Positions 5,227-63,287 are shown, counted from the first letter of the stretch. The stretch is DNA of 64,000 bases from Pirellulales bacterium (GCA_035499655.1 DATJYL010000185.1:843-64842), one strand, 5' to 3'. The notes: generated by a model not told the origin, from the sequence alone. Numbers and translations: made by a program.

Positions 5227-5270
5227 ATTTGGTTCTCCTTAAAAAGGAGACATGGGTTTTAAATATAAAT

Positions 5271-5412: not shown

Positions 5413-5421
5413 ATGTTCCGT

Positions 5422-6285: not shown

Positions 6286-6300
6286 AGTTTGTGGAAATGT

Positions 6301-7024: not shown

Positions 7025-7107
7025 AGTTGTTTCAATCCCTTGCTTGCTGGGAACAGGAAATCTATAAGCCCGTTACTATAACTATTCATCAATTCATTTG
7101 AAACCGG

Positions 7108-7743: not shown

Positions 7744-7799
7744 CGATGCGACCTACGGAAATGCCGCCGGAATCTACTCAATTCTATCCGCTGGGTGAT

Positions 7800-7823
7800 T
7801 TTTGACAACTCATTATGTCAAAA
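7800..7823. promoter_or_regulatory. Candidate operator palindrome TTTGACA-N9-TGTCAAA upstream of sufR
   Basis: Near-perfect 7 bp inverted repeat about 60-80 bp upstream of the sufR ATG. A nested larger inverted repeat GGTGGGCCAATTTGAA…TTCAAATTGTCCCACC lies at ~7855-7945. Confidence 0.35.
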
Positions 7824-8099
7824 ATATATCCCGTCTGCAAACGCCTTGATTTTCCGGTGGTGGGCCAATTTGAACATAGCCCGACTGTGTCAGTCGGGAA
7901 AAGCGGCTGTCGGAATTTCAAATTGTCCCACCACCAATTTTCCGTCAAAGAATAACGCAGAAATGGCCCGTCAGCGAGGGAAAAGGGGCTCGGGACGAAG
8001 GAAGAGACATGCCCGAGTAGAATCCAGAAATTTGAGGAACCGCTGGGTTTGTTTTTAAGGCCAGCAGCTTCGATGGCCACGACGTGGCACGTGCCAAAC

Positions 8100-47600: not shown

Positions 47601-47703
47601 CAGTGCATCTCTGGAAGGCGTGACGGATAGAGTGGCCGCTGTCTCTGCGGCTGAGGACAGCCACCCCATTCACAAAATTTACACCAGCCGGCAGACGAGA
47701 ATG

Positions 47704-49404
47704 TTACGCATCGCGGCCGAAAACCACTAGGCACATGTCGTCACTTTGAGCCCGATTGTTGGCGTGCCGCTTCACGTCGTCTAAGATCGTACGACCCAGC
47801 GTGGCAGCGTTTTCGGCGTCCTTTTCTTCTTGCGCTTTCAGCCGCTCCAGGGTGTACAGCTCGTTGTCGGGATTCAGAGCTTCGCTAATGCCGTCAGTAA
47901 ACAGTGTAATGACTTCGCCGGGGGCTAAGGTCAGCTCGGCGGCGTCATACGTGAAGCCATCGGTAACTCCCAAAGGAAGACCGGAAATCTCCGGAGCCAC
48001 TTCTTCAACTTTGCCAACGCCGTGTCGCACAAACGGCGGCATGTGCCCTGCGTTGACAAGGGTGACCATATTCGTTTTTGGGTCCAACAGTGCCAGCACA
48101 AACGTGGCAAAGCGGCCTTCCCAGCCGGCGCTACAAAAACTTTCGTTGATCCGGTTCACCGCCTCGGCGGCCGTGGGCTCGCTGGCGAGAGAGTATCGAA
48201 CCTCGGCGGACAGCTTGGCCATCACCAACGCGGCGGCCACGCCTTTGCCGGAAACGTCGGCCAGCACCACCGCCACGCGGCCGTCTCGCAGCGGCACATA
48301 ATCGTAAAAATCGCCGCCGACTTCGTTGGCCGCTTCATAGAAATCGAAAAACTGATAACCCTCCACCATCGGCGGCGCAGTGGGCAGCAGGCTTTTTTGC
48401 ACTTGTCGGGCGGCGTTCAAATCGGCCTGCACTTTTTGCTGTTGCAGTTGCCGTTCGTGCAGTCGAGCATTCTCAATCGCGAACGCCGCCTGCGAAGCCA
48501 CGCTGGCCAGCACGTCCAAATCGTCGTTGGTAAAACGGGCCCGTTGATCGAGCGTGTCGATTTGAATCACCCCCAGCACGTTCCCCTCGCCGGTGACCAG
48601 CGGCGCACACATCATGGAGCGGATGCGGAAATCGGCAATGCTTTGGCTCAGCTCAAAGCGCGCGTCGCTGGCGGCATCGGCCGAAAGAATGGCATGCCGC
48701 TGCTTGACCACCTCGTTAATAATGGTCCGGCTCATCCGGGCGCCTTCCTCTTCTTTTCCCTTGCGCTGCTTAAACGCTTTGGGAATCAACCGGCCTTCGG
48801 CCGTGCACAGGACCACAAAACCCCGATCGGCCTGCGCAAAAATGTTGAACAAACTGTCCAGCACCTTCGGCAAAATTTGTTCCAAGGCCGTCGCCTGGCT
48901 GAGATTCTGCGTGATCTCGATCAAAGCCCGCAATTTGGTTTCCGGGTTCACCGTCAGCCGCGCGGTATCGGCGCTGGAAGTCAGGTCGATCTTCCACATC
49001 ACCGTGCTGCTGCGGCTCACCTGGGCATTATCTTCCGTGACTTCAAACGGGCTGGCTTCCAGCGCCGCCCCGTCCCCCGCCGCACCGGCGCCGACCGCCG
49101 CCCGAGCGGGCGCATTGTCCGAGTGGAACGCCAGCGTATGATCGCAGATTTTCAACTCATCGCCGTCGTGCAGCGGCTGCGGCGCTTGCACCAATTGGCC
49201 GTTTACCAAGGTGCCGTTGCGACTGCGAAGATCTTCGATGACATACTCGCCGTCGATGTACGAGATTTGCGCATGTTGTCGGCTGACGGCTCCCTGATCG
49301 AGCACGATATCACACTCTGGATGCCGGCCCAAAATAGATTTTTGCTCAGGCAGGGTCAGCTGCTGACCGGTGCGATCGCCATTCAAATATTCCAAAATGG
49401 CCAT
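47704..49404 (-). CDS. FHA domain - GAF domain - PP2C/SpoIIE-type Ser/Thr phosphatase
   Basis: FHA: …ILGRHPECDIVLDQGAVSRQHAQISY…NGTLVNG. C-terminal GDFYDY…VVLADVSGKGVAAAL…TDGISEA PPM motifs. Confidence 0.75.
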   Translation of the reverse strand: MAILEYLNGDRTGQQLTLPEQKSILGRHPECDIVLDQGAVSRQHAQISYIDGEYVIEDLRSRNGTLVNGQLVQAPQPLHDGDELKICDHTLAFHSDNAPARAAVGAGAAGDGAALEASPFEVTEDNAQVSRSSTVMWKIDLTSSADTARLTVNPETKLRALIEITQNLSQATALEQILPKVLDSLFNIFAQADRGFVVLCTAEGRLIPKAFKQRKGKEEEGARMSRTIINEVVKQRHAILSADAASDARFELSQSIADFRIRSMMCAPLVTGEGNVLGVIQIDTLDQRARFTNDDLDVLASVASQAAFAIENARLHERQLQQQKVQADLNAARQVQKSLLPTAPPMVEGYQFFDFYEAANEVGGDFYDYVPLRDGRVAVVLADVSGKGVAAALVMAKLSAEVRYSLASEPTAAEAVNRINESFCSAGWEGRFATFVLALLDPKTNMVTLVNAGHMPPFVRHGVGKVEEVAPEISGLPLGVTDGFTYDAAELTLAPGEVITLFTDGISEALNPDNELYTLERLKAQEEKDAENAATLGRTILDDVKRHANNRAQSDDMCLVVFGRDA

Positions 49405-49621
49405 AAGAGCCCACAAGGTGGCAGGCACCGTAAGGACTAGGGCGCGGTGCAAACAGTTTGCCGCAGCCAAGATCACCCGCGAACCCATCTTGCCGCGCGA
49501 TCCTCGATTTTACGAAGGCTTCACCGGGAGCGTCAACCGGCGGCAGCGAAGGCAATGGTGGCAATTCTATTGACGCACCCCGACGGCCGCTTTACGCTTA
49601 ACTGCCCTGAATCGGAGATTC

Positions 49622-49693
49622 TGGGGAATAGTGTAACGGTAGCACGAATGGCTCTGGACCATTTAGTCTAGGTTCAAATCCTAGTTCCCCAGC
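49622..49693 (+). tRNA. tRNA-Gln (anticodon CTG)
   Basis: Manual fold: acceptor UGGGGAA/UUCCCCA (U1-A72, G73 as in E. coli tRNA-Gln), D-arm GUG…CAC, anticodon stem AAUGG/CCAUU with loop CUCUGGA, T-arm CUAGG-UUCAAAU-CCUAG. Confidence 0.8.
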
Positions 49694-50370
49694 TTTTTGC
49701 CACACAAAACCCATGCTTTGGCGACACAAATGCCACACAGGGAACTAGGTTGTCAACGCAATCACTATAGAGTTTGCATGGCATTAGGACACCAATTCAC
49801 TCGGTCCGATAAGTGGATTGCTTCCGAAGTGTCTCTTAACAACTGCAAAACGCTGGTAAAATCGACCTCGTTATCAATCGCTACTCTGTGTGAATCCGGC
49901 TAGAACACAATCTGGCTGATTGTTTTTGTACTCTCCGGATTTCAAATCACAGCTTCCATATAGGGACGGATTACGTTCGTCATGCGGCACACTTTGGCAG
50001 CCTTCCAAAGTTCGTCGCTGCTGGCCAGCTTTTTGCGCCAGCAGTCACGCAGCGCTTCCAGTGCCACATCCAGTCCCACTTGGTTGCGGAATTTGAAACA
50101 GTCGGCCACCGTCTTGGCGGGAGAGTAAATCTTCACGTCTACACCGTCAATCCGATGGGCTTGAATGCCGAAGCGCTGCGCCGCATCAGCATATCGCACA
50201 ATCCGCAGTGGCGGATACTCGATTTTCGGCGGGCGAGTTTTTTTGGGGATTGCCAGCCAGATCTGATGCGGGTTTTCCGTGGTCATCTCGTGAAAGGCCA
50301 GCGCCCAGCAGGCGGACCACTCCTTGCGGCGTTCGTTTGGCGACCTCGGCGAGCCGCGCGAAACGGCTCG
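49673..50370. repeat. Direct repeat copy A (~700 bp, ~90% identical to 54827-55525). Starts with the 3' 21 nt of tRNA-Gln and contains the C-terminal part of an AbiEi-like gene
   Basis: Visible alignment ttcaaatcctagttccccagctttttgcca…ggaactaggttg… through …cgaggtcgccaaacgaacgccgc…. Copies diverge at ~50370 / 55525. Confidence 0.75.
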
Positions 50371-50400
50371 GCTTAGCAATTCGCCTTCTTTATTGGCCGG
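49942..50400 (-). pseudogene. Frameshifted/truncated AbiEi-like gene copy (C-terminal ~145 aa match the intact paralog 55100..55726)
   Basis: ORF-track ORF 49942..50604: C-terminal half …HEMTTENPHQIWLAIPKKTRPPKIEYPPLRIVRYADAAQRFGIQAHRIDGVDVKIY… is ~90% identical to the 55100..55726 product. Upstream part is out of frame. Confidence 0.65.
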
Positions 50401-50776
50401 GAGGCGGTTGCCACAACTCGATCTTATTCTCCTCGGGATCGATGACCCAGGCAAACGTACCGTATTCAGATTCGTCAATCTTGTCGAGGACGTTGCAGCC
50501 CTCTTCTTTAAGAACCTTGACAAGACCGTGAAGGTCTTCGACACGATAGTTGACCATAAAGGATGCCTTGCTTGGAGCGAAGTGGTTGCTTTCCGTAGGA
50601 TCAATCAACCAGGCAGTGGTCCCAGCGGTGGGTTTGCCCTCCGCATCGGTCCAGTTGAAGGCTGCACCTCCCCATTCCTGCACGTCGATGCCGAGGTGAC
50701 GCTTGTACCAGGCCTGCAACGCAGGCGCGTCTTTAGCCTTGAAGAAGATGCCGCCGATGCCAGTGACTCGCTTCAT
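50390..50776 (-). CDS. VOC-family (glyoxalase/bleomycin-resistance fold) protein
   Basis: 128 aa. …VTGIGGIFFKAKDAPALQAWYKRHLG… typical of the VOC/glyoxalase I-like fold. Confidence 0.6.
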   Translation of the reverse strand: MKRVTGIGGIFFKAKDAPALQAWYKRHLGIDVQEWGGAAFNWTDAEGKPTAGTTAWLIDPTESNHFAPSKASFMVNYRVEDLHGLVKVLKEEGCNVLDKIDESEYGTFAWVIDPEENKIELWQPPPGQ

Positions 50777-51076
50777 CTCGACCTCCCATAACGCGTGGTT
50801 TGAAAGTGCTTTCTGCGGCCTGACTTGTAATCATCTAGCCAGATTACGGAGACATTAAGCGCCCATGGATTCCTATATCCTGAAGCATTACAAGCGCACG
50901 AAGTTGGCCCGCAGTGGGGGCAACCATTCCATTAAGATACGAATGGTCGTGCCTTTGCACCCTGTTCCGTTCCGAAAGGCCTATCGGGCATACACGAGAG
51001 GCCGTCAATGACAGATTATCCAGTGCGTTGGTTAAGCGATGCATAAATTTATATTTGGCTGGAAATAGAAAGAAAA

Positions 51077-52240
51077 TCATTTCGTGTTCAAACACGCCCA
51101 TAAAGTTTCACGAATCTCCCTCAGCCCGCGATATTGCGCCAATTCATACTCCGTTGCGGCGACAACTAAGGCGATTGCGCACATCGGCAACAGCGACTGG
51201 GCAACTCTGGCGCAGTTCCACGTTGTCGTTGCGACGAAGCTGATGCCACCGATGAAAGTGACAGCTATGATCAACAAAATGCACAAAATTACTCGGCTCA
51301 GTGATTTGGAACTCCAAATCGGTCCGTACAGAGCATCACGCGTTTTATAGTAAAGCAGACCAAGCACAAATTGAACCGTCGGCATAAATGTTAGGACTGC
51401 CGCCGTGGTCCGAACAATTTCCCACGATACTCCTCGCCAACCAGAGAAGTATGCTGTGGCCCCAATGCTGACGAAACACACGACGGCCAGGATGATGAAT
51501 GACTGTAGCGACTGACGAAACATAAATTGCGCGGCTGATTCCGGCGCGCGCCAGCCGAACCAGTTTTCGACGTAGCGCCTGCGGCGCTCGGACACGGGCA
51601 AAACTGCTGCCAATTCCTGGGCCAATTCTGACGGATCACCGAAGCGGCTGGCCGCTTCTTTCATCGCCGCCGCTGGATTGTGCAGTCGTTCGTACTCTTC
51701 GCTATAGATTGCCGTTAAATGCGCGAACAGTTCCTCACGTGCGTCCTGTTTCCAAGCAGTGCCTGCCGGCACGGGGCCAACGGCGCGTTCCACCAATTGC
51801 ATTCGTTCCCGAAAATTGCGAAATACTCCCTCGATGACCTGACCAATATGCTGACCCAGGTTTTGCAAAACTCGAGGGGCCACGCCTTCCCGCTCGCGAT
51901 ATAGCCCTAGAAGCAGATGCTCGGGGTCGATGGACGGAACGTTCATGAAAGCGGCCTCGTCGCAGGCGAATTCGATGGCGCGTTGTGCCCGGGTCGTCAT
52001 AGGGAGCGCGCCGGTAGCGATGCGTTTCGGACCGCGTTGGGCGAGCCGTTCGATCTCTTGCCGAACCTCAGCTGCAGCGATGCCCAATGTCTTGAAGGCG
52101 TCGATTACAATGGCAGAGCCTATTTGAATAAGCCCTAAGAGGATGTGTTCCGTGCCGACGTATTCGTGATGTAAATCACGCGCTTCGAGTTCAGCCCGGC
52201 CCAGAACCTTCTTTGCTGCTTCTGAAAAGTTGTTAGCCAT
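51077..52240 (-). CDS. Clp N-terminal (Clp_N repeat) domain fused to a C-terminal polytopic membrane domain
   Basis: Two Clp_N-like repeats (…YVGTEHILLGLIQ… / …IDPEHLLLGLYRE…), followed by ~200 aa with ≥4 predicted TM helices. Confidence 0.55.
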   Translation of the reverse strand: MANNFSEAAKKVLGRAELEARDLHHEYVGTEHILLGLIQIGSAIVIDAFKTLGIAAAEVRQEIERLAQRGPKRIATGALPMTTRAQRAIEFACDEAAFMNVPSIDPEHLLLGLYREREGVAPRVLQNLGQHIGQVIEGVFRNFRERMQLVERAVGPVPAGTAWKQDAREELFAHLTAIYSEEYERLHNPAAAMKEAASRFGDPSELAQELAAVLPVSERRRRYVENWFGWRAPESAAQFMFRQSLQSFIILAVVCFVSIGATAYFSGWRGVSWEIVRTTAAVLTFMPTVQFVLGLLYYKTRDALYGPIWSSKSLSRVILCILLIIAVTFIGGISFVATTTWNCARVAQSLLPMCAIALVVAATEYELAQYRGLREIRETLWACLNTK

Positions 52241-52312
52241 CTCGTTTTGCTCCTAGCAACTCGTCTCGCGAATTGGTCTGTAATAGGGTCTTTATTCAAT
52301 CAATTAAGATGA

Positions 52313-54022
52313 TCAGTTTTGCGCTGGCTTAGCCGTCAGCGCGATGAGTCCATCGGCAAGAGTCCCGCGCCACGTTTGATAATCGTGTCCGCCGCTGAAT
52401 TCGGAATACTGCACGGCGTATCCCTTGGCCTCTAGGACATCCCGAAAACGACGGTTTTCAGCGAGCAAGCTGAAAGGAAAACTGTCTTCGAACCGCCCCG
52501 CTTCAAGATAGAACCGAATCGGCTGCTGCGGCGCCATCGCATATTGGCGCGTCAGCCAACCCGGTTCCGCGCCAGGTGGAATCGATTCCCCAAGGGCACC
52601 GGGAAACCATTGATAGGACCCGGATTGTGATAACACGTTACCGAATACCTCCGGGTAACGAAGTGCACAGAATGCCCCCATCAGCCCTCCCTGGCTCAGA
52701 CCTCCTATGATCGTGTTTTTTGGATCGGCACTAACGTGATACGTGCTTTGCAACCAGGGGACCAATTCCTTAGCGATAAAGTCGGCAAACGGTTCCGAGC
52801 AAGCCAACTCTGTTGCGCGATTTTGTGAAGCGTGTGTCACGAATACCGCCACCAGCGGTGGAATTTTGCCCTTGTCGATCAGGTTATCGAGAATTGTCGG
52901 TCCCGGGATCTCATCGCTTGATTCATAAGACGGCCCATCAAACAAAATAAGCAGCCCAGGCTTCTTTGCGTCGCTGTCGGGTTTCGCAGGAGTGTAGACC
53001 GTCAACACGCGCTGCTGTTTTAGGATTTCGCTTTGAAACTTCCGTTCCGCCAATTGCCCCTCAGGCACTTCGGGAATTCGTTCGAGCCACGGTTGGTGGG
53101 GGGCTGCGGGCATTTCCAGTAGCGATTTCAAGCTCGACTGGATCGTCACCTCATGCGGATTCAAGGGATCGAGTTTGGGTACCAATCGCAGCATCAGTTT
53201 GAACTGACTTAGTTGGTCTTCTGGCAGATTCGTAGGCCAGTTAATTTGAAATGAATATGCGAACCGAGCATCATTCGGAATCCGTTCGGTTCGATACCAA
53301 ATGTCGGAACCGTCTAAATGGGCAAGAGGCTTGTCCTTCTCGCCTGTGGGTAGACCGCCGCTGAGGCCGACACGATGTGTTTTATCATTGCCGCGCCAAA
53401 CAAACGTCACCCAAGAATCATGCGGGTCGTCGGGAATAGGCTCAATCAGCGGCGCTTTCTCCTGCAGATTTTTCCAAAACTGCTCGACCACGACGTGATC
53501 GCCGTTCTTTAACTCCTTTGCCAAGGCCGCCAGGTGAGGACTCTTCAACGACTCGCTGGGTTCCCTGAAATCTTCCTCAGGCAGGATCGCCTTCGAAATT
53601 TTCTTGGCGGTTAGCTTGTCGGCGCCTTGCCCAAGGACCAGGCCGATAACTTGCCCTTTCTCATCCTGCTGGATGGTGAAGTGCGCCTCAACGATCTTCC
53701 AAAAAAATTTCGTTTCGCTTTCGGGAAAGACTTCCAACCGCGGCTGGCCTGTAATCTGAGCGAAAAGGTGCTGTCGTTCGCGGTCGAGCACAAGAATCGC
53801 ATTCGGGCCTAACTCATATTGCCCGACATAAGTGTCCAGCAGCTTTGGATCGATGGATATCACATGCTGCCGTTGGGGATCTGAAGCTACCTGATTTGAT
53901 GATTCTTTGGCAGTTTTTACGGGTTCTTCTGCACGGATCACCTCAATCGGCAGTTGAATCGGAAACAATAACAACATCACGATCCAACGGATCGACTCAC
54001 GAAACAAGCGGATCTTGATCAT
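52313..54022 (-). CDS. Secreted esterase, alpha/beta-hydrolase (enterochelin-esterase/putative-esterase family) with N-terminal extra domains
   Basis: …IGGLSQGGLMGAFCALRYPEVFGNVLSQSGSY… (GxSxG-like serine hydrolase). Start 54022 (M in MIKIRLF…) lies 3 nt from the padR stop. Confidence 0.65.
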   Translation of the reverse strand: MIKIRLFRESIRWIVMLLLFPIQLPIEVIRAEEPVKTAKESSNQVASDPQRQHVISIDPKLLDTYVGQYELGPNAILVLDRERQHLFAQITGQPRLEVFPESETKFFWKIVEAHFTIQQDEKGQVIGLVLGQGADKLTAKKISKAILPEEDFREPSESLKSPHLAALAKELKNGDHVVVEQFWKNLQEKAPLIEPIPDDPHDSWVTFVWRGNDKTHRVGLSGGLPTGEKDKPLAHLDGSDIWYRTERIPNDARFAYSFQINWPTNLPEDQLSQFKLMLRLVPKLDPLNPHEVTIQSSLKSLLEMPAAPHQPWLERIPEVPEGQLAERKFQSEILKQQRVLTVYTPAKPDSDAKKPGLLILFDGPSYESSDEIPGPTILDNLIDKGKIPPLVAVFVTHASQNRATELACSEPFADFIAKELVPWLQSTYHVSADPKNTIIGGLSQGGLMGAFCALRYPEVFGNVLSQSGSYQWFPGALGESIPPGAEPGWLTRQYAMAPQQPIRFYLEAGRFEDSFPFSLLAENRRFRDVLEAKGYAVQYSEFSGGHDYQTWRGTLADGLIALTAKPAQN

Positions 54023-54363
54023 GTCAATCCTCCCAATATCGTTCCCAAAACCTGCACAAATTGTCGCCACTCCGCTCGACCCGCGCTCAATTGCCGCTTG
54101 CCCTTAGTAGTCAGCCGATAGATTCTGCGCCGCGCGCCGCGACGTCCGTGTTGCTCTTTTTCCCAAACTGCCTGCACGTCGCCAGCGGATTCAAGCCGGT
54201 ATAAAGCCGGATAGAGCGAGCCCTCTTTGAGCTGCAGCAATCCACAGCCAGCGGCCTCTAATCGGTGCAGGATTTCCAGTCCGTGGGCGTCACCACGTTC
54301 GAGCGCCGACAGGATCATCGCTTCCAAATGACCGCGCAATTTGTCGCCATGGATCGTAGTCAC
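54019..54363 (-). CDS. PadR-family transcriptional regulator
   Basis: …LEAMILSALERGDAHGLEILHRLEAAGCGLLQLKEGSLYPALYRLESAG… PadR wHTH. Confidence 0.8.
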   Translation of the reverse strand: MTTIHGDKLRGHLEAMILSALERGDAHGLEILHRLEAAGCGLLQLKEGSLYPALYRLESAGDVQAVWEKEQHGRRGARRRIYRLTTKGKRQLSAGRAEWRQFVQVLGTILGGLT

Positions 54364-54826
54364 GCCGTAATACTAGACAGTCTATAATTAAGAGTCAAGA
54401 GGCCAGCCGCACCGTTCGGCCGAGACCGCTTTCCGTTGTCCAAAAGCGTTTGAAATTTAGTTGTTGATCCAGGTTAGATACGACTTGGCGATTAAAGTCG
54501 CTATTGCCCGAACGGTGCTAATTCATCGAATCAGACGACGATTTAGGCTTAATTATGGATGCGCAGGCGATACAAACAATTGATGGTTGCCACGCAACCC
54601 AAATGCGGCGGGTGAAGAACTCAAATTCAGTGTCTGATCAGTTCAGATTCGGTGCCGAAACAGTTGACGCAAAGTTGACGCAGAATGGGCTACACAAGCT
54701 CCCCATAGTCGCCCTGCAACCGCAATAGAAAATCGGTCCCGGACCTGATATAAACCATTCCGGGGACGCGAACTGCTACCCAAATGTCCTGCAAGTACAA
54801 CGCGCAGTCGTTCATTTTTTGGCCGC

Positions 54827-55525
54827 TTCAAATCCTAGTTCCCCAGCTTTTTGCCATGCAAAACCCACGCTTTGGCGATGCAAATGCCACACAGGGAACT
54901 AGGTTGTTAGCGCAATCACGATTGATTTTGCATAGCATTAGGACACCAATTCACTTGGTCCGATAAGTGGATTGCTTCCGAATTCGCCGTGTCTCATAAC
55001 AACTGCAAAGCGCTGGCAAAATCGAACTCGTTATCAATCGCTACTGTGTGAATCCGGCTTGGACACAATCTGGTAACTTGCTTTTCGGCTGACCGGATTT
55101 CAAATGACAGCTTCCATGTAGGGGCGGATGACATGCGTCATGCGGCAAACTTTAGCAGCCTTCCACAGCTCGTCGCCGGTGGCCAGCTTTTTACGCCAGC
55201 AATCGCGCAGCGCTTCCAGCGCCACATCCAGTCCCACTTGGTTGCGGAATTTGAAGCAGTCGGCCACCGTCTTGGCGGGAGAGTAAATCTTCACCTGCAC
55301 GCCGTCAAGCGGATGGACCTGGATGCCGAACCGCTGCGCTGCATCAGCATATCGCACAATGCGCAGGGGCGGATACTCAATTTTCGGCGGACGAGATTTT
55401 TTGGGAATCGCCAGCCAGATTTCATGCGGGTTTTCTGTGGTCAGGCCGTGAAAGGCCAGCGCTGACAGCAGGCAGACCACAGCCTGCGGCGTGCGTTTGG
55501 CAACTTCGGCGAGCTGCGCGAAGCG
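54827..55525. repeat. Direct repeat copy B (begins with tRNA-Gln 3' 21 nt fragment ttcaaatcctagttccccag at 54827-54847)
   Basis: See copy A. The tRNA 3'-end fragment here is not preceded by the rest of a tRNA. Confidence 0.75.
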
Positions 55526-55726
55526 GCCTGATTTGGCCTTCGCCAGGCGATACAGTCCGCGTCCGGGTCGTTCCAGGATGCCTTCCACATAGAGCTTGTT
55601 CAGGTACTCGGGGGCAATCCCCAGAGGTTCCAGGTCCCGGGGGCGCAGAAGCCCATTTTTACGGGCGAGCGTGAGAATTTGCTCCCGTTTTTGCCCGGCA
55701 TCGTTAGTTAGATTATGTCGTACCAT
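55100..55726 (-). CDS. AbiEi-like (type IV TA antitoxin / COG5340-type) wHTH regulator, intact copy
   Basis: 208 aa. …ILERPGRGLYRLAKA…VVCLLSALAFHGLTTENPHEIWLAIPKKSRPPKIEYPPLRIVRYAD… resembles the AbiEi antitoxin family. No AbiEii nucleotidyltransferase partner adjacent. Confidence 0.5.
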   Translation of the reverse strand: MVRHNLTNDAGQKREQILTLARKNGLLRPRDLEPLGIAPEYLNKLYVEGILERPGRGLYRLAKAKSGRFAQLAEVAKRTPQAVVCLLSALAFHGLTTENPHEIWLAIPKKSRPPKIEYPPLRIVRYADAAQRFGIQVHPLDGVQVKIYSPAKTVADCFKFRNQVGLDVALEALRDCWRKKLATGDELWKAAKVCRMTHVIRPYMEAVI

Positions 55727-56194
55727 ATTAATATCTACCTACATAATCTTACCACGCAATTTGGCAGGAGGGAACGAGAAACGATTAGGGGCCAAAACCC
55801 CTCAAAATCGGCCAACAAAGGCAGCTCGGACTGGAGGGAGCAGGGGAGGGACTCATTGCAGGCCTTCTCTGGCCTTCCTCGTCGGGGCCAAGGGCCTTCG
55901 GCCTCAGCGGGGCGAGCCCCGACGATGAATGCCGACGAAGGCAGGTGAAAACCAAACGGAAAAAGCCCATGAAAACGACCGCGTTACCACGACACACCGT
56001 GGGGACAGCAATGCCACCCGGCGCTTAATAGTTTTGAGAATAAATCGCTTGCCCAATCGGACCTGTCGTAAATCATGGCGAGAAACTCGCCTTGACGAAG
56101 AGGAACGTTGCATGGTATTTGGTTATCCGAATTTGCTAAACCAAATTAGCGTGTCAATTCAGCGATGAAATCAATGTTTTAGGAGAACCGCCTC

Positions 56195-56581
56195 ATGGCC
56201 CGACCCGCTGCAAAGGAACTCACTCATCGCGAATTGGAAGTCTTGCAGGCGTTTTGGCAAAACGGTGAGTTGACTGCATCCGAAGCTCGTGACCAACTGG
56301 CAAAGCGAGGCCTAGACCTAGCCTATGTGACGGTCGCCAACCTGGTGCGAATCGTGGAAGACAAGGGATTCTTAATCAAGACGAATCAGGAACGGCCGTT
56401 TACTTATCGTGCGGCAAGGTCGTTCGATGATGTTTCGGACAGTTTGGTACATGATCTTGTCCGCCGCGTGTTCAAAGGTTCGCGCGAGCAATTATTGCTG
56501 AATGTGTTGAAGCGACGGCGACTGACGGCCAAAGAGCGTGTTCTGTTGCGAGAAATACTCGACGAGGAGTCAGAAACATGA
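56195..56581 (+). CDS. BlaI/MecI/CopY-family transcriptional repressor
   Basis: …LTHRELEVLQAFWQNGELTASEARDQL…VTVANLVRIVEDKGFLI… Penicillinase-repressor wHTH. Confidence 0.8.
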   Translation: MARPAAKELTHRELEVLQAFWQNGELTASEARDQLAKRGLDLAYVTVANLVRIVEDKGFLIKTNQERPFTYRAARSFDDVSDSLVHDLVRRVFKGSREQLLLNVLKRRRLTAKERVLLREILDEESET

Positions 56582-58872
56582 ATTCACTGAGCATTGACCT
56601 GGTTTTTTCACTGCTGCACGCTTCGGTAGTGGTCGTTGGAGTGCTGCTGGTGCGATCCTGTGTTCCAAGTCGTTTCATCGCCAGCCGAGCAGGCGTCGGC
56701 GGGGTTGGTTTGGGCTGCGTTCTGTTGGTGACCGTGCTGACATTTCTGCCCCTGCCGTACATTGGGCCAATTTCAAGCAGTGCTCTGCCGCAAGCAGACC
56801 AAACATTCTCCAAATTCGCAAAACCTCCTGAGGCCACTGCGACCTTCCCATCTCGTACCTCGGGATCGGAAACTACCGTTAAAACGACTGCAAGCGGCTT
56901 GTCCATTCCCGTGACTTGGCTGCATCGCATCAGCAACAGCGTTACCACTTCAATAACCACCGTCGATGCTGCGCCACGAATCTTCCTAAATGTTTTCATT
57001 GCAATCTTACTTTTCGGCATCGCCATCAACCTGCTGCGGTTCTCAGCAGCGCTGTATCACGTGCATCGGTTGTACAAAAAAAGCATCGTCATTGCAGACG
57101 AGGGTGTCGCTAGACTGTTGGAGGAGTTTCAAACTCGTTGCAATTACCGGCGCAAAATTGAACTACGAGAAAGCACCGAATTAAACAGCGCCGCCACGTT
57201 TGGGTTTCTGAAGCCAGTGATCCTGTTTCCGACTGCCTGGAGACTGTGGTTGCACGATGAACTGGCTGCAGTTTTGGCTCACGAAGTGGCCCACATCCGA
57301 CGGCATGATTTTTTACAACGATTGATTTCCCAGTTTTGTGTAGCCCTTCACTGCTATCATCCGTTAGTCAAAGCGACGGCTCGGCGGCTGGCCATCGATC
57401 AGGAATACGCCGCTGATAATTTGGCCAGCCATTTGCAAACGAACAGCCAAACCTACATTCGCGGTTTGGCAAAATTGGCTTTACGATTTCATGACTCGTT
57501 TCTGGACTGCCCGGCATCACTCATGCCCAACTCATCCGATTACCTTGCAAGGAGGCTTCAAATGTTGCGAACTAAGGAAGGTTCTGTCCGCCATCACCAC
57601 ACGTCACTCGTGACGACATGCGCCACGCTCATGATTGTTGTTATTACTCTGGCTACCGCATTGCTCTACAGTTCAATATCTCTGGCCGACAAGCCAAAAG
57701 CAAATTCACAATCTCCCCGAATTGCATCGCTCCCCAATGCAACCCCGAGCGCTACGCAGACATCGAAGTCCGATCGTTCCGCATCGGATGCTGATTCTGC
57801 AAAAGTGAAGTCGGCAGTCGATCAACAAGTCGAACCACTGTTTGTCCGCAGCCCATTTGATCTATCAATTCTGCAACACGCTGATGAAGGTGCTGCTCTG
57901 ATTCGCTTAGGCGAAATATTACGCCATCCTGATATTGCGCCGCTAGTCGATGGGTACAACTCGCAGTTGACCAACGCTCTGCGCGGGTGGACCAAAAAAA
58001 ACACCTCGGTCGATCTGCGGCAAGTCGAGTGGATTGCATTCTGTACGACCGTGACGATTAAAGCTGCCACTCCCGACCAGAATCAGTCTGACAAAAAAGT
58101 GCCAGATAAGGATGGGCCGCACGGCACCTTGATGCTGGGTGCAGGCTACATGTATATCCGCATGGCGCATGCTGCGAATTGGCAGCAGATCGTTTTAGAT
58201 AGCGTCCCCGGATCAACGCTGGAAACGTTTGAGGGGCATCAATATGTCCACATGCCGAAAATCACATTTCTGGGTCCCTCTGGTTTCCGGCTACGATTTC
58301 CTGACGACAGAACCGTTGTTTGGGCCTGCGATTACAAACCGGAAGACGCCGAGGAGTCAAACAAACTGTTTTTCGACGACAAACCTCGAACAGAACCCTA
58401 TGCTTGGGAATCAACCTGGCGCGGGGTCGAAGGTGGTTTGATCACTTTCGTTTTTGACCACACCAAAGACGGCTGGTCAAAACTACCCGAACCTAATCGC
58501 CATCAACAAGAATGCCCCGAACAGGTCTTGCCACTTGTGGATGAGGCCAAGTACTACGCCTTAGGCTGGGACTGCACCGAAAAGAGCCGAGAGACGGGCA
58601 TTAAAATTCGCGCGACCTGCGACGATGATACTACGGTTCAGAAATTCTATCTTGCAGCATCGCTCCTGTTGAATCGCTGGCCCGATTTGTTCCAAGACAG
58701 CCCGAAAAACCTAGAAACATATCACACTCGGTTAATTCAATTCTTCTCCGGGATAAAAATCCAAGCTAGTCCCGTTAGCAGCGACCAGCACTTTATAGAG
58801 ATGACGGGCGATGCTGGGCTAAAAGAAGGTGAGTTGAAATTGATCGCGCAACAAATCTTTAGTGGCATTTGA
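56578..58872 (+). CDS. BlaR1-like M56 peptidase/sensor with large C-terminal extracytoplasmic domain
   Basis: N-terminal TMs. HEXXH in …LAAVLAHEVAHIRRHDFLQRL…. ATGA overlap with the upstream blaI-like gene. Confidence 0.75.
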   Translation: MNSLSIDLVFSLLHASVVVVGVLLVRSCVPSRFIASRAGVGGVGLGCVLLVTVLTFLPLPYIGPISSSALPQADQTFSKFAKPPEATATFPSRTSGSETTVKTTASGLSIPVTWLHRISNSVTTSITTVDAAPRIFLNVFIAILLFGIAINLLRFSAALYHVHRLYKKSIVIADEGVARLLEEFQTRCNYRRKIELRESTELNSAATFGFLKPVILFPTAWRLWLHDELAAVLAHEVAHIRRHDFLQRLISQFCVALHCYHPLVKATARRLAIDQEYAADNLASHLQTNSQTYIRGLAKLALRFHDSFLDCPASLMPNSSDYLARRLQMLRTKEGSVRHHHTSLVTTCATLMIVVITLATALLYSSISLADKPKANSQSPRIASLPNATPSATQTSKSDRSASDADSAKVKSAVDQQVEPLFVRSPFDLSILQHADEGAALIRLGEILRHPDIAPLVDGYNSQLTNALRGWTKKNTSVDLRQVEWIAFCTTVTIKAATPDQNQSDKKVPDKDGPHGTLMLGAGYMYIRMAHAANWQQIVLDSVPGSTLETFEGHQYVHMPKITFLGPSGFRLRFPDDRTVVWACDYKPEDAEESNKLFFDDKPRTEPYAWESTWRGVEGGLITFVFDHTKDGWSKLPEPNRHQQECPEQVLPLVDEAKYYALGWDCTEKSRETGIKIRATCDDDTTVQKFYLAASLLLNRWPDLFQDSPKNLETYHTRLIQFFSGIKIQASPVSSDQHFIEMTGDAGLKEGELKLIAQQIFSGI

Positions 58873-58913
58873 TGCGATCTTCCCGATTGCAGCGTGATTA
58901 CGACATAAGAGAA

Positions 58914-58952
58914 TCGGCCGGATAGTGCGAATCTATCCGGCCGATCTTTTGG
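58914..58952 (+). terminator. Rho-independent terminator (11 bp GC stem TCGGCCGGATAG / CTATCCGGCCGA, 7 nt loop, TCTTTTGG tail)
   Basis: Perfect hairpin plus T-tract 40 nt downstream of the blaR1-like stop. Confidence 0.6.
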
Positions 58953-59126
58953 ATTTCAAGGCGATAGCCGGGGTGCTGACCGCACTGGATTCTTAAGTTG
59001 GCTGCACCAAGTCCGAACGGATTCTTTGCGAACAAAGCATGTTTTTTTACTGGCTCGAATTAAACTATAAAGCTTCACCACTTTGCTCGTTCTAAAACTC
59101 TCCCCACTCATCTGCATTGCGTTGGG

Positions 59127-60131
59127 ATGAAATTTATGGCGGAAAAACTATCACGTAATGCGCCATGCCCGTGCGGCAGCGGTAAGAAATACAAACACTG
59201 CTGCATCCGCAAAGACTTCGAGTGGGTAGAAATGGACGACGGCACGATTGGACGAAGCGTGGAATTGTCGGACGATGTCAGGGAATCACTTGAAAAACTC
59301 CGAGAGCACCAAAGGCGAGCCTTCGGCCGAGAGCCGGAAGGCGCATTTGAAGGTGCACCGCCCTTTGAACATATTGAGCACTGGACCGTTGAAGCCATGA
59401 AAAAAGGCAACGTGGATCCGGCTCTGATCTATGCCTATGAAAAAACCAATGGTTTGCTGCTCAATCACCACAATGAGAATAAGCTGCCTGATTGCGAGAT
59501 TGCTGAGTGGGAGGCCGCCATTGATGAATACGAGATTAGAACGGGAACGAAAGCAGCGCGGCGCCGCCTGACGGATGAGGACTTTGATGCCATCATGCAA
59601 AATGGTCCCGTGGACCGCCCTCAACCAGGATTTGTCATGCGACTATCGCTACCACCGCCGTTCACCAAAGAAGAATGGGGACAGCGGCAGGTGTCTGACA
59701 TTATCGAGGATCAGAAGTGCTTCGATTATCTGCAAAGCTGCATTCAGGAAATCAGCCGTAGTGGAAGAGGAAAGCTCTACCTGAATATGTTCCTCACGAT
59801 GGCTAATCTTGGTGGTCCAGCGAGCGGACGCAGTGACTATGAGGAAGTCTTGAAAGAAGCGACTGAACGAGACTTTTCTGTGGACGAATTAAATCACACA
59901 CTTGAGTCGCTGTTTCTCACCTGCAAGCCTAAGAGTTCAATGCCAAGCGCTGCCGCAGCATTCGAGGTGCTTGGTTTCATCGGTGATTTTATGAACAGCT
60001 ATGCCGAACATCTCGATGACGGGGACGAATTGTCTGATGTGCTGCAAAAGATCAACGGATTAGCACTGCTCGCTTTCATAGCCGCCGTCAACACCGAACT
60101 CGGTATTCAACCCAATACTTGGTCGGGTTAA
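59127..60131 (+). CDS. SEC-C motif (zinc-ribbon CPCGSGKKYKHCC) N-terminal domain protein, otherwise uncharacterized. Low-GC gene
   Basis: MKFMAEKLSRNAPCPCGSGKKYKHCC… SEC-C metal-binding motif at residues ~12-26. AT-richer than flanks. Confidence 0.55.
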   Translation: MKFMAEKLSRNAPCPCGSGKKYKHCCIRKDFEWVEMDDGTIGRSVELSDDVRESLEKLREHQRRAFGREPEGAFEGAPPFEHIEHWTVEAMKKGNVDPALIYAYEKTNGLLLNHHNENKLPDCEIAEWEAAIDEYEIRTGTKAARRRLTDEDFDAIMQNGPVDRPQPGFVMRLSLPPPFTKEEWGQRQVSDIIEDQKCFDYLQSCIQEISRSGRGKLYLNMFLTMANLGGPASGRSDYEEVLKEATERDFSVDELNHTLESLFLTCKPKSSMPSAAAAFEVLGFIGDFMNSYAEHLDDGDELSDVLQKINGLALLAFIAAVNTELGIQPNTWSG

Positions 60132-60235
60132 ACGTATACGTATCCTTGGATTCTGTCGGCTATTGAACACGGCGTTTGATTGACCTTAGCAAAGAGCCCG
60201 TGAGCCGGAACCTCCAGCATCACGGGCTATCTCGA

Positions 60236-61348
60236 CTACAACAAATTGACCACGCGGTCGGCAAGGCCCTTTTCGCCGAGCAGGACGTTCAGCTTCGACG
60301 TGGCAGCAATCTTCTCCAGTACTTCCAGCTCGCGCAAACGCATGAGCGTCGGGTTGTCCTGGAGCAGCTTCGCCGTGTTGACCTGGCTGCGCATGGCGGC
60401 CGTTTCCTCGCGACGGACGATGAGGTTGGCTTCGGCAGCCTTCTTGGCCTCCGTCACCTTGTTCATCAGGTCTTTCATCTCGCCCGGCAGGATGATGTCG
60501 CGGATGCCGACCGAAATCAGTTCCAGACCAAGCGACTTGGCGCGCGGGCGGACGATTTCAGCCAGTTCATTAGCCACCGCATCCTTATCGGTCAAGAACG
60601 AATCGAGTTCGCGGGCACCGACCACGGCGCGGAGCGCTAACTGCACCTCGCGGTACAGCGCCTGCCGCACGTCGTCGGCCACGCTGACGGCCTGCCGGGC
60701 ATCGACCACGCGGTAGGTCACGACAGCGTTCATCCGCAGCGTCACCTTATCGGCGGTCATGATGTCCTGGCCAGCCACGTCAAACATCGCCTCGCGCATA
60801 TCTTCCTGAACAAACTTGACCGTGGCCAAGTTCTTCCAAAAAGCGTAACGACCCGGCGGCAACGTTTCGACGAAATCGCCGTCGACGAACAGCACGCCCA
60901 CATGGTGTGGCTCAACCGTGCCAATTTCCAGCACGCGGTCGACCGCAGTCGAGCGCATGATGACGCGCAAGTCCGTGTGTACGAAACGCACCTTGCGGGC
61001 ATCGATCACTTCGACCTTCACGGCGCGCAGTGTCGTCCAGTAGGCATACAAGCCCGGCGGCAGGATGTGGCTGAAGCGACCTTCGATCCACACCAAGGCC
61101 CGCTCATAATCCTTCAGGTCCAAAACCACCGCGCGGTCCTGCAGCGCACCCGACTTGACGATCACATCGAGCTTCTCGTGCACGAGCCACGGCTCACGCA
61201 TCGAGACAACCTCGACGCGGACCTTGCTCCACGGGTCGAACAGCCAGTGGCGACCGCGCGCCAGCAGGCCCTTGAACTCCCGGTTGCGGAAGTACAGACC
61301 GATTTCGTAGCTGCGGATATTAACATACTTAAGAATTGGAGTGTTCAT
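60236..61348 (-). CDS. SPFH/band-7 (slipin-like) domain protein without obvious N-terminal TM
   Basis: Central band-7 region …DVAGQDIMTADKVTLRMNAVVTYRVVD… followed by a coiled coil (…EAKKAAEANLIVRREETAAMRSQ…). Confidence 0.6.
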   Translation of the reverse strand: MNTPILKYVNIRSYEIGLYFRNREFKGLLARGRHWLFDPWSKVRVEVVSMREPWLVHEKLDVIVKSGALQDRAVVLDLKDYERALVWIEGRFSHILPPGLYAYWTTLRAVKVEVIDARKVRFVHTDLRVIMRSTAVDRVLEIGTVEPHHVGVLFVDGDFVETLPPGRYAFWKNLATVKFVQEDMREAMFDVAGQDIMTADKVTLRMNAVVTYRVVDARQAVSVADDVRQALYREVQLALRAVVGARELDSFLTDKDAVANELAEIVRPRAKSLGLELISVGIRDIILPGEMKDLMNKVTEAKKAAEANLIVRREETAAMRSQVNTAKLLQDNPTLMRLRELEVLEKIAATSKLNVLLGEKGLADRVVNLL

Positions 61349-61805
61349 AGTTCACCGCCTTTCATTCTTGCTGCTGTACCGACTGACAATATCAATGGAT
61401 GCGTCGTTCGCCTGATTTCAAAAAACCCGCTGGCGACGGAGCGAATTGCCGATCACACGGCTCGATGCGGAGTGCGGTTAAGTCGGAATTGATTTCAGCT
61501 CAGAGCGTAGGGCACGATTTACTGTCGAGCGCTTGCACGCTCGAATCAGCAAACCCGCGTCTGCGATCCTCTGCTAACGTCAATTACCGGCGGTATCCGC
61601 GCACTACAGGGCACGAGCACGTGCTGCTGATAGCCAGCGGCTCACTTCGGCAACCAGGTCACCCAACTGCCGACCCGAAGATCAGCCCATCGAAATTCCT
61701 CGTCACCTGATGAACACACCGAACTGCCAGCCGATCAAACAACCGTCCGACGCCGTTGGGCCTTGGTGGTGGACGCTTTCACGCCCGGAGCGAGTTTGCA
61801 CTCGC

Positions 61806-61878
61806 GGTTTGGTACGGGAGTCGAACCCGCGACAGCCAGATTCATGGTCTGGTGCTCTAACCTCTGAGCTAACCAAGT
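61806..61878 (-). tRNA. tRNA-like gene, Met/Ile2-like body but atypical (anticodon loop CCAUGAA with C33; two acceptor-stem mismatches). Possible pseudo-tRNA
   Basis: Manual fold of reverse complement: D-arm UAGCUCAGAGGUUAGAGCA, anticodon stem CCAGA/UCUGG, T-arm GCGGG-UUCGACU-CCCGU. Confidence 0.4.
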
Positions 61879-62010
61879 GGTAGTCGCACACAGCCTTCGT
61901 TAGAACCCATTCGCGGAACACGTTTCGCCAATCGTTTTCGCGAGACGAATCGCGCCGCTGGCCTAGCTGCGCCAACTTTGCTTGTAATTCCTTTCTGTCT
62001 TCGTTGATGA

Positions 62011-62082
62011 AGACGCCGGTGGGAGTCGAACCCACTTCGAACTGCTTTGCAGGCAGTTGCCGTGCCGTCTGGCTCCAGCGTC
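62011..62082 (-). tRNA. tRNA-Cys (anticodon GCA)
   Basis: Acceptor GACGCUG/CGGCGUC, discriminator U73 (Cys identity), anticodon stem ACUGC/GCAGU with loop CUGCAAA, T-arm GUGGG-UUCGACU-CCCAC. Confidence 0.75.
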
Positions 62083-62129
62083 AAAAGTTGCCCGCCGAAG
62101 CGAGCAACCAAATTCAGTCTCTAAAAGTA

Positions 62130-62306
62130 GTGATTACGATTAGCGCCGTCGAAACGAGCCTTTCTTCAGGCAGCATTTTTTGAATCGCTTGCCGCTACCA
62201 CAGGGACACAAGTCATTTCGACCGAGCTTCTCTTCGAGCAGCTTCGTGTTGTGTACGATGCGGACACCGCGTTTGACTTTTTGCTCGGACGGGAAACCTT
62301 TCCGTC
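62130..62306 (-). CDS. Small SEC-C motif protein (58 aa; [58 protein letters not shown]), missing from ORF track
   Basis: Manual translation. C-terminal [15 protein letters not shown] = SEC-C zinc-binding motif (as in SecA C-terminus/YchJ). Confidence 0.55.
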
Positions 62307-62404
62307 GTTTGCTCATCCGTTCGAAAAAAATGGTTGATCGTCAAAATCGTGCCTGTGCATGGGACACCTCCTTAGAAAATCATCCCGAGACAAAGAATCC
62401 GCAG

Positions 62405-62477
62405 TGTCCTCGCCAGGAATCGAACCTGGTCCTCGACCTTCGCGGGGTCGCATGCAAATCCGGCACACCCCGAGGAC
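62405..62477 (-). tRNA. tRNA-like gene, probable Arg-type (anticodon loop CCGCGAA: reads GCG if canonical; C at position 33)
   Basis: Perfect acceptor GUCCUCG/CGAGGAC, anticodon stem CGACC/GGUCG, T-arm CCAGG-UUCGAUU-CCUGG, 73 nt. Confidence 0.5.
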
Positions 62478-62482
62478 AATCT

Positions 62483-62947
62483 TTATTTGATTCTCAACGC
62501 TTCAACTTGCTGAAGTGCGTCACTAGGCAATTCGTTGCCATAAATTACGGATAAAATAGCTGGAAGATAAATATCGAATGCTTCTCGCGTCATTCCAATC
62601 AAGCGATCGACAGTTTCATTCTCAAGTCGATCTCCAAGCAAAGTCTCGGCGGTTTCAAACCGCAACTCTGAAGTCTCAAAGTTCATCTCGAATCCGCCAC
62701 AAGGAAGTGCAGAGTTAACAAGACGGATGCTTTCAACCACTCCTGACTGACAACCTTTAGAAACACACAACCGCAATTGGCCTGTTGCCTGGAATTGACC
62801 GACTTCGTTATTAATCCTCGCAAACACACGATAGGAACCGACAATTCCAGGAAAATCCACGCAAATTGCTTGTTGCTCATCGTTGGACCAATGGCCGATT
62901 TGCAATTGCTTCATGCGCGACAGCAGCTTTTCGTACGCAGTGTTCAT
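62483..62947 (-). CDS. Hypothetical 154 aa protein on low-GC DNA between tRNAs (possibly YbjN-like)
   Basis: ORF-track ORF. Region is AT-richer than genome average. No recognizable catalytic motif. Confidence 0.35.
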   Translation of the reverse strand: MNTAYEKLLSRMKQLQIGHWSNDEQQAICVDFPGIVGSYRVFARINNEVGQFQATGQLRLCVSKGCQSGVVESIRLVNSALPCGGFEMNFETSELRFETAETLLGDRLENETVDRLIGMTREAFDIYLPAILSVIYGNELPSDALQQVEALRIK

Positions 62948-62966
62948 AAATATTGCTCCCGTTCAG

Positions 62967-63038
62967 TACCTCGCCGAGGAATTGAACCCCGTCTTGCAGC
63001 TTCGAACGCTGCCGTGCTATCCGTCACACTCGCAAGGC
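62967..63038 (-). tRNA. tRNA-Arg (anticodon TCG)
   Basis: Acceptor GCCUUGC/GCGAGGU (two G-U pairs), anticodon stem GCAGC/GCUGC with loop GUUCGAA, T-arm CGGGG-UUCAAUU-CCUCG. Confidence 0.65.
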
Positions 63039-63053
63039 GCATTCGCTGTGCAG

Positions 63054-63125
63054 TATCCCGACCTGGAGTCGAACCAGGACCTGGACCTTCGGAGAGTCCA
63101 ATGCGATCCGCTACACTATCGGGAT
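63054..63125 (-). tRNA. tRNA-Arg (anticodon CCG)
   Basis: Acceptor AUCCCGA/UCGGGAU, anticodon stem GGACU/GGUCC with loop CUCCGAA, T-arm CCUGG-UUCGACU-CCAGG. Standard numbering fits. Confidence 0.7.
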
Positions 63126-63217
63126 GTCACAGAGCCGACGACTGGATTCGCACCAGCATTGACCGGTTTACGGGACCGGCGCCTTTCTCAATCGAGCCAC
63201 GTCGGCATTTTTTCCAG

Positions 63218-63287
63218 CACGAGCGTGAGGATTCGAACCCCATGTGACGGCTTTGGAGGCCGCTTGCCCTCCCAGGAGCACACTCGT
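63218..63287 (-). tRNA. tRNA-Trp-like (anticodon CCA) with shortened/irregular D-arm (70 nt)
   Basis: Acceptor ACGAGUG/CGCUCGU, anticodon stem GCGGC/GCCGU with loop CUCCAAA, T-arm UGGGG-UUCGAAU-CCUCA. The D-region does not form a canonical 4 bp stem. Confidence 0.45.

Follow-up and report, generated by a model that had tools for sequence, protein, structure and literature searches.

Related islands probably stacked in tandem at a tRNA-Gln gene of an uncultured Pirellulales bacterium

The locus described here lies in a 64,000-nt stretch of DNA from a Pirellulales bacterium (GCA_035499655.1 DATJYL010000185.1:843-64842), referred to below as the window, which takes in almost the whole of a 64.8-kb metagenomic contig that stops 12 bp past the window's end. 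The left 49 kb of the window is housekeeping backbone, with genes for Suf, SecA, G6PD, 6PGD, PFK, Dus and QueG, and is followed by an intact tRNA-Gln(CTG) gene. The last 21 nt of this gene, TTCAAATCCTAGTTCCCCAGC, which begin with the first T-loop base, extend to the tRNA 3' end and are called the core in what follows, occur at exactly two sites in the 64 kb, with a chance expectation of zero (cores A and B, Table 1). Core A is the end of the tRNA gene itself, while core B is a fragment upstream of which neither ARAGORN nor alignment finds a tRNA body, and no third copy was found within the window with up to three mismatches allowed.

Each core opens a direct repeat of about 700 bp (49673 to ~50377 and 54827 to ~55535, the copies starting 5154 bp apart), composed in order of the core, a non-coding spacer of ~250 bp and the 3' two-thirds of a minus-strand AbiEi gene. 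Pairwise alignment gives 619 matches and 82 mismatches (88.3%) in five gap-free blocks with four small indels, BLAST gives 87.5% over 704 columns, and the longest identical runs are of 38, 35 and 30 nt. We designate as E2 the 5154 bp (5.15 kb) from core A to the last base before core B (49673-54826), between tRNA-Gln and E1, and as E1 the DNA from 54827 onward, which opens with an intact orphan AbiEi gene and continues past the end of the contig. The two cores that bound E2 are identical, and its genes are limited to an AbiEi pseudogene and those for the four proteins encoded by the 4.2 kb between the repeats, in which Pfam recognizes a VOC protein, a Clp_N protein, an esterase-like hydrolase and a PadR regulator.

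An earlier sequence-only reading of this DNA had described a tRNA-Gln gene followed by cargo between direct repeats of ~700 bp that open with the tRNA 3' end, the second of them with the identical 21-nt fragment and no tRNA body; it had also named a VOC protein, a Clp_N protein and a PadR-esterase pair as the cargo, and had called the AbiEi-like gene intact in copy B (208 aa) and frameshifted in copy A. The anatomy is confirmed by ARAGORN, Rfam, pattern search and pairwise alignment, the cargo domains by Pfam, and the state of the two gene copies by Pfam, PADLOC, tblastn and alignment; only the figure of ~90% identity for the repeats was slightly generous. An assembly artefact was considered and rejected, as both junctions are present in independent assemblies from other samples, junction A in L002, a contig of another ENA sample (99.97% over 47684-54696), and junction B in L004, a JGI contig (100% over 54471-61608), and the layout is therefore real.

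Table 1. Features of the tRNA-Gln locus and of the visible parts of E2 and E1 (window coordinates; L-numbers denote other contigs, and J1 and J2 the two junctions of L012)
Feature	Position	Strand	Evidence and remarks
tRNA-Gln(CTG), intact; putative integration target (attB side of attL)	49622-49693	+	ARAGORN; Rfam RF00005, 66 bits
Core copy A, 21 nt, first T-loop base to tRNA 3' end	49673-49693	+	Same in all five junctions
Putative P'-arm/spacer of E2, non-coding	49694-49941		Alignment; no reading frame common to the copies (ORF list)
AbiEi pseudogene (copy A)	49942-50377	-	tblastn, alignment, dN/dS
VOC/glyoxalase-family protein, 128 aa	50390-50776	-	Pfam PF18029/PF00903
Clp_N protein with long C-terminal extension (putatively transmembrane in the sequence-only reading), 387 aa	51077-52240	-	Pfam PF02861, 1.1e-20 (N-terminal domain)
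DUF3471 + enterochelin-esterase-like hydrolase	52313-54070	-	Pfam; the gene callers' start at 54022 gives 569 aa
PadR-family regulator	54019-54363	-	Pfam PF03551, 6.5e-19
Putative P-arm, conserved right end of E2, ~215 bp	54611-54826		90% identical to L012-J2 and 77% to L012-J1 at matching positions
Core copy B, tRNA-Gln 3' fragment, tRNA body absent; putative hybrid E2/E1 junction	54827-54847	+	Pattern search, ARAGORN, alignment
Putative P'-arm/spacer of E1	54848-55099		88.6% identical to spacer A, 90.5% to L012-J1
Orphan AbiEi, intact, 208 aa (copy B)	55100-55726	-	Pfam AbiEi_4, 1.9e-12; PADLOC AbiEi, 1.9e-81, residues 12-207
AbiEi upstream region	55707-55955		Repeat search; homology with L009, L012 and L005-L007 stops at ~55945-55955
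BlaI (E1)	56195-56581	+	Pfam
BlaR1/M56 (E1)	56578-58872	+	Pfam
SEC-C protein (E1)	59127-60131	+	Pfam
Band_7 (E1)	60236-61348	-	Pfam
Seven clustered tRNA genes (E1)	61806-63287	-	ARAGORN
HNH endonuclease (E1)	63322-63930	-	Pfam

Two further JGI contigs carry related junctions. In L009, whose AbiEi is 88% identical, the AbiEi gene, spacer and 21-nt core are followed by unrelated DNA, in the genes of which PHROGs gave no phage signal. L012 has two junctions 4.9 kb apart, J2 with a full AbiEi gene and J1 with just ~40 bp of it, and the ~4.9-kb cargo between them encodes an AraC regulator, two short-chain dehydrogenases/reductases and a zinc-dependent alcohol dehydrogenase. A five-way alignment of window A, window B, L009, L012-J1 and L012-J2 gives a core without a single difference, and similarity starts in all five junctions with the first T of the T-loop, which along with the anticodon loop and the 3' end is a canonical crossover position. 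On its left side the core adjoins three unrelated kinds of sequence, namely the tRNA body (window A), a segment of ~215 bp that is common to window B, L012-J1 and L012-J2 (77-90% identical pairwise) and other DNA (L009); on the right, the nearest ~100 nt are conserved throughout (71-94%), the remainder of the spacer having been replaced in L012-J2. The left segment and the right-hand spacer are referred to here as P-arm and P'-arm, and the joint made of P-arm, core and P'-arm occurs once in the window, at B, and twice in L012. Junction B is thus built like an attP or hybrid attachment (att) site, and junction A, with tRNA, core and P'-arm, like an attL.

Conservation of the arms exceeds that of adjacent synonymous sites about threefold. 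Spacers A and B differ at 11% of positions as against 33% of neighbouring synonymous sites (Fisher p = 1.7e-5), and the P-arms of window B and L012-J2 at 10% as against 35% (p = 4.6e-9). The arms also contain 6-9 repeated 8-mers, compared with ~1.5 in shuffled sequences; AGTTGACGCA is found twice in the P-arm, 11 bp apart (54663-54683), and once more in the P'-arm of L012-J2, and ATGCAAA-type motifs occur in direct and inverted orientation, including within the conserved first ~100 nt of the P'-arm. We infer that these repeats are candidate protein-binding sites, and on the explanation favoured below the protein would be an integrase.

The tRNA 3' end recurs as a 10-bp inverted copy (GGGAACTAGG) 47 nt past the core in both repeats (49741-49750 and 54895-54904), and likewise in L009, L012-J1 and L012-J2. 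The hairpin that this copy could form with the core scores z -1.3 to -2.3 relative to shuffles, too weak for a structured RNA. With no platform integrase, and with this weak hairpin the only one across the core where attC-type folded sites would be needed, the locus does not qualify as an integron-like cassette array.

The two AbiEi copies have separate histories. Copy B retains both the N-terminal winged helix-turn-helix (wHTH) domain and the C-terminal domain (Pfam, PADLOC), while copy A keeps residues ~66-208 only, having lost the wHTH domain and the promoter; residues 89-208 are in frame (49942-50304), a 2-nt deletion near 50304-50306 causes a frameshift after residue ~88, with homology ending ~15 nt short of the stop codon of the VOC gene. 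Two direct copies 5.15 kb apart, one of them a pseudogene, are what would remain if the segment next to the tRNA had undergone local tandem duplication and then decayed. However, over 120 in-frame codons copies A and B differ with a dS (synonymous substitutions per synonymous site) of 0.44, equal to the divergence between genomes, and a dN/dS (ratio of nonsynonymous to synonymous rates) of 0.11, so that the dead copy has not simply drifted neutrally; the gene part of copy A is nearer to that of L012-J2 in another genome (dS 0.09, 95% identity) than to copy B, and unrelated cargo separates the two. Local duplication is therefore excluded, and, taken with assembly artefact as a single alternative, we find it scarcely credible. 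Copies A and B appear instead to have evolved as functioning genes during most of their divergence.

Among the three intact orphan genes (window B, L009 and L012-J2), pairwise dN/dS is 0.12-0.15, and 0.13-0.15 for window B with the other two, values that indicate maintenance by purifying selection in three genomes. The gene does so without its usual partner. As the sequence-only reading had also said, AbiEi here lacks AbiEii: tblastn with three AbiEii proteins detects no remnant in the window, spacer included, and the stop codon of copy B is merely 252 bp of non-coding DNA from core B, with no bicistronic AbiEii (DUF1814, PF08843) downstream. The locus is therefore not a complete AbiE system, and AbiEi alone cannot act as one.

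The nearest AbiEi homologues outside the tRNA-Gln context are 72-78% identical and all have AbiEii directly downstream (P0003, P0008, P0027 and P0088), and some of these pairs (L005-L007 and L010) are in plasmid-like or transposon-rich surroundings. The nearest complete AbiEi-AbiEii pairs are those of L005-L007, which carry P0003 (78% identical) and have ParA and a replication-protein gene (PF10134) nearby; these contigs probably represent a Pirellulales plasmid, and this plasmid is a possible source of the AbiEi module. Upstream of the orphan gene, an imperfect 23+23-nt palindrome (55707-55752) is centred on the start codon and is a candidate autoregulatory operator. Further out, an inverted repeat with 27-nt arms (55862-55942) marks where the conserved AbiEi module breaks off sharply on its outer side; past it the sequence differs from genome to genome, similarity to L009, L012-J2 and L005-L007 ending where the table indicates.

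The same chromosomal site was located in relatives through orthologues of the upstream SpoIIE phosphatase, which are 88% identical at the amino acid level in L024 and L025, 82% in L022 and L023 and 81% in L028, the last compared by gene content only. The SpoIIE-tRNA-Gln arrangement is kept in L022-L025, the entire GH43-VWA-ADH-SpoIIE run only in L024 and L025, and all four contigs resemble the window only as far as 49694/5, the base right after the tRNA. What lies beyond differs. L022 has a 421-aa tyrosine integrase (PF00589, 5e-25) 77 bp past tRNA-Gln, followed by HTH_17, SIR2_2, Piwi, methyltransferase and ResIII genes; L024 has small unrelated open reading frames (ORFs); L023 stops at tRNA-Gln; and L028 has a bestrophin-like gene and, over 9 kb, no repeat of the core. 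None of these five relatives has AbiEi at the tRNA-Gln site. Occupancy of the site thus varies, synteny being lost at the tRNA 3' end and the downstream DNA differing. The genes that L022 carries there (within 1-9600) make up a defence island at this hot spot, with a SIR2_2 and Piwi pair (short-pAgo-like), an N6_N4 methyltransferase and ResIII.

Composition agrees with a foreign origin of the region. The GC content at third codon positions (GC3) is 0.67-0.72 in backbone genes (lower, 0.61, in SufB) and 0.58-0.66 in the E2 cargo, and in E1 it ranges from 0.54 to 0.80, with 0.54-0.55 in BlaI, BlaR1 and SEC-C and 0.76-0.80 in Band_7 and HNH. The low-GC3 BlaI/BlaR1 pair (penicillinase repressor and M56 peptidase) has no counterpart where L009 and L012 are syntenic with E1. 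Some of the E1 tRNAs have odd anticodons (His-ATG and Arg-GCG by ARAGORN), and the tRNAs score only 42-50 bits or below threshold with Rfam. In L012 (9691-13429) 30 more tRNAs come after the syntenic HNH gene and tRNA-Trp, and L009 (2514-3750) has the first 13. From this synteny a long array of ~38 tRNA genes together would lie inside E1, and L009 and L012 place a P-arm/core joint beyond it. Horizontally spread tRNA L-arrays are known and offer a comparison (PMC8421152).

The orphan AbiEi, Band_7 and tRNA array, being syntenic in L009 and L012, could also mark a stretch of chromosome that has been conserved. In that case all the DNA from the spacer and AbiEi module rightward would be native, and E2 a single element that carries a captured copy of its flank, acquired for example by imprecise excision in another strain. 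Against this, the four relatives that share the upstream backbone have no AbiEi downstream of tRNA-Gln, and in L012 the joints of P-arm, core and P'-arm flank both sides of a different cargo and adjoin the tRNA array with no tRNA-Gln body near. The GC3 of the E1 genes is atypical, and the closest AbiEi homologues elsewhere sit with AbiEii, in some cases on the plasmid-like or transposon-rich contigs mentioned above. We regard a native flank as highly unlikely.

The explanation that we think probable is that islands have accreted in tandem, by site-specific insertion, at a tRNA-Gln hot spot, with E2, now decayed and resembling a cis-mobilizable element (CIME), stacked on E1. At least two related integrative islands would stand in tandem in the T-loop of tRNA-Gln(CTG) and would belong to a family whose layout comprises the 21-nt core, a conserved P'-arm of ~100 nt in a spacer of ~250 bp, an AbiEi gene reading toward the tRNA and a ~215-bp P-arm at the end. 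E2 would either have inserted into the tRNA gene regenerated by E1 or have arrived together with E1 as a pair, the outcome being an attL (tRNA, core and P'-arm of E2) and a hybrid attP-like joint (P-arm of E2, core and P'-arm of E1). Both islands would open with the same P'-arm/AbiEi module, which is why the repeat extends ~680 bp past the tRNA fragment. Afterwards E2 would have lost the 5' third of its AbiEi gene; carrying no recombination genes, it would persist as a CIME-like remnant, its two att ends enclosing a PadR/esterase/Clp_N/VOC accessory module, and could be moved only by an integrase supplied in trans or be lost through recombination between the repeats, which share identical runs as long as 38 nt. 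Because of the invariant T-loop boundary and the attP-like architecture, we infer that a tyrosine-type integrase made the joints, either acting in trans from elsewhere or since lost. This is an ordinary kind of island stacking, with no new mechanism.

The earlier proposal that the repeats are the att sites of a decayed tRNA-targeted island at a hot spot finds support in the T-loop boundary, the loss of synteny in relatives, the integrase-bearing island of L022 and the composition of the region. The arrangement varies among relatives and the variation is tied to the tRNA 3' end, so that the repeats are not part of an invariant duplication unrelated to the tRNA. As to their being the two att sites of one island, the att character holds and the assignment of copy B to the far flank does not, since copy B would open a second island, E1. 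The other suggestion made at that time, exchange of cargo by homologous recombination, is right in so far as mosaic modules attest to recombination, and it is not exclusive of an island. The clearest mosaic is copy A, whose spacer is only 69% identical to that of L012-J2 despite 95% identity in the gene part; recombination has therefore reshuffled modules besides any site-specific stacking.

The main alternative is that RecA produced the duplication. Circular or linear DNA with a core-spacer-AbiEi module of ~0.7-1.1 kb could have joined a resident module in a Campbell-type event, duplicating the module around the cargo with no integrase at that step, and the length of the repeats and of their identical runs, the mosaicism between genomes and the absence of an integrase from the window ORFs scanned are all in keeping with this. 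RecA recombination is inefficient at 88% identity, which is the identity of these repeats. Nor would it explain why five of five junctions break at the T-loop beside three unrelated left sequences, or why a conserved P-arm lies directly at the core. Moreover, it covers the last step only, the incoming DNA needing an attP from prior site-specific recombination. We consider it an unlikely account of the locus.

Several observations weigh against site-specific accretion. Foremost, an integrase or excisionase was not found in E2, the visible 9 kb of E1, L009, the visible part of L012 or the rest of the window, so that catalysis by a cognate site-specific enzyme is putative. An integrase-bearing member of the element family was not recovered from the genome, metagenome, viral, plasmid and phage collections, and for this exact genome neither a circular form nor an empty site was seen. 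E1 has its right end outside the contig, in a position taken from synteny with L012, which is only 82-88% identical, and the mosaic modules mean that homologous recombination was active too and may have made part of the present arrangement.

The remark in the sequence-only reading that no integrase is visible agrees with the Pfam scan of 48 long window ORFs, including every E2 and visible E1 gene, in which no recombinase domain (PF00589 or other) was matched; relaxase and replication genes are likewise missing from E2, the visible 9 kb of E1 and the visible L009 and L012. A helper element with the cognate integrase was found neither in the visible DNA, which ends with the contig 12 bp past the window, nor in the collection scans. 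Exact-pattern scans retrieved only an unrelated Phycisphaerales tRNA-Gln from genome contigs, and L012 plus three unrelated tRNA-Gln genes from metagenomes. Viral contigs gave nothing relevant with P'-arm or P-arm motifs; the 18-mer TTGACGCAAAGTTGACGC matched in viral contigs L020 and L021, where similarity goes no further, and blastn of the P-arm, core and spacer had no match in the plasmid and phage collections. The 21-mer core alone matched two viral contigs, L018 and L019, in which tyrosine integrases adjoin tRNA-Gln(CTG) or a fragment of it, an occurrence that speaks for accretion. The fragment in L018 reaches 5' of the T-loop, so that this one at least seems to have a longer identity block, which suggests that its integrase belongs to a different crossover class. 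Since it does not encode an integrase of its own, the locus is filed as a decayed or non-autonomous tRNA-targeted island.

A more speculative extension of the accretion scheme, and one that we put forward as rather doubtful, is that the conserved ends, a ~215-bp P-arm at one side and the tRNA-Gln core with P'-arm and orphan AbiEi at the other, mark a family of small cassettes in Pirellulales, without integrases of their own, which stack at tRNA-Gln and are inserted, excised or exchanged singly by a recombinase encoded elsewhere. If so, the site would be a tRNA-anchored platform with metabolic and regulatory modules and the ~38-gene tRNA array as its cassettes, and the orphan AbiEi might guard the host against AbiEii toxins carried by related plasmids, or have a function at the att site.

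The E2 cargo was not found as a mobile unit elsewhere; the best homologues of its esterase are only 60% identical, and the PadR, Clp_N and esterase trio recurs in L027 without these att ends. There (1039-4326), in another organism, the trio has a different gene order and a 60% identical esterase, and adjoins a type III CRISPR-Cas locus. Its recurrence suggests that the three gene products may work together. A promoter-like site is present near PadR (54398-54370), but promoter and terminator scans overall did no better than on shuffled sequences.

Taken as a probable stack, the locus would extend to an uncultured soil planctomycete lineage the kind of island stacking described in Streptococcus and Dehalococcoides, and would make tRNA-Gln(CTG) a hot spot for the exchange of accessory regulators, hydrolases, a long tRNA array and, in relatives, defence genes. 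The orphan AbiEi, kept by purifying selection at an island edge, is a clear example of its kind and agrees with the view that an antitoxin gene may be of use without its toxin. There is also a caution for annotation, in that a long repeat opening with a tRNA fragment may be the common end of two stacked islands and not the att sites of one.

AbiE is a type IV toxin-antitoxin and abortive-infection system (Dy et al. 2014, PMC3985639), and stabilization of an integrative and conjugative element (ICE) by AbiE has been reported (PMC11062541). The 208-aa protein of the window is likewise a full-length AbiEi by profile comparison (Table 1), its close homologues precede AbiEii, and the palindrome over its start is as expected of an autoregulated antitoxin (PMC7319586). 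Unlike the known systems it is an orphan, with AbiEii absent, and yet it is under purifying selection in the three genomes.

With regard to the att sites, a T-loop crossover has been established for mycobacteriophage Ms6 at tRNA-Ala (PMC1762012). Ms6 shares with the window an identity block from the T-loop to the tRNA 3' end, with regeneration of the tRNA on integration; it differs in having a known integrase and a short attP core. The ICESt1/ICESt3 family of Streptococcus thermophilus provides a model for CIMEs and site-specific accretion (Pavlovic 2004 and Bellanger 2011, as cited in PMC5704250), and a route to CIMEs by decay and then accretion is described for streptococcal ICEs (PMC5704250). 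Like a CIME, E2 would be stacked on a related element that uses the same att site, a chimeric internal att joining the two, and it keeps both att sites without recombination or transfer genes. In contrast to the streptococcal case, no helper ICE or integrative and mobilizable element is visible, conjugation and relaxase genes are absent from the parts seen, and an autonomous ancestor that decayed into E2 is putative.

The closest described case is that of the Dehalococcoides genomic islands at ssrA (ssrA-GIs), which form tandem arrays with 20-bp repeats of the ssrA 3' end, insert at the T-loop and carry integration genes in 16 of 31 islands (McMurdie et al. 2011, PMC3146451). There, a serine recombinase, DsiB, and its partners lie beside attL, in the place that AbiEi occupies here; the window and its relatives differ further in that a recombinase was not found in any member, in the target, tRNA-Gln, and in the planctomycete host. 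The likenesses are several: islands would stand in tandem downstream of one small-RNA gene, with 3'-end repeats of ~20 bp and a break at the T-loop; there is additional conservation beside the repeat, and the phylogeny of the conserved end module disagrees with that of the variable cargo; and both families include members without an integration module, which make up about half of the ssrA-GIs.

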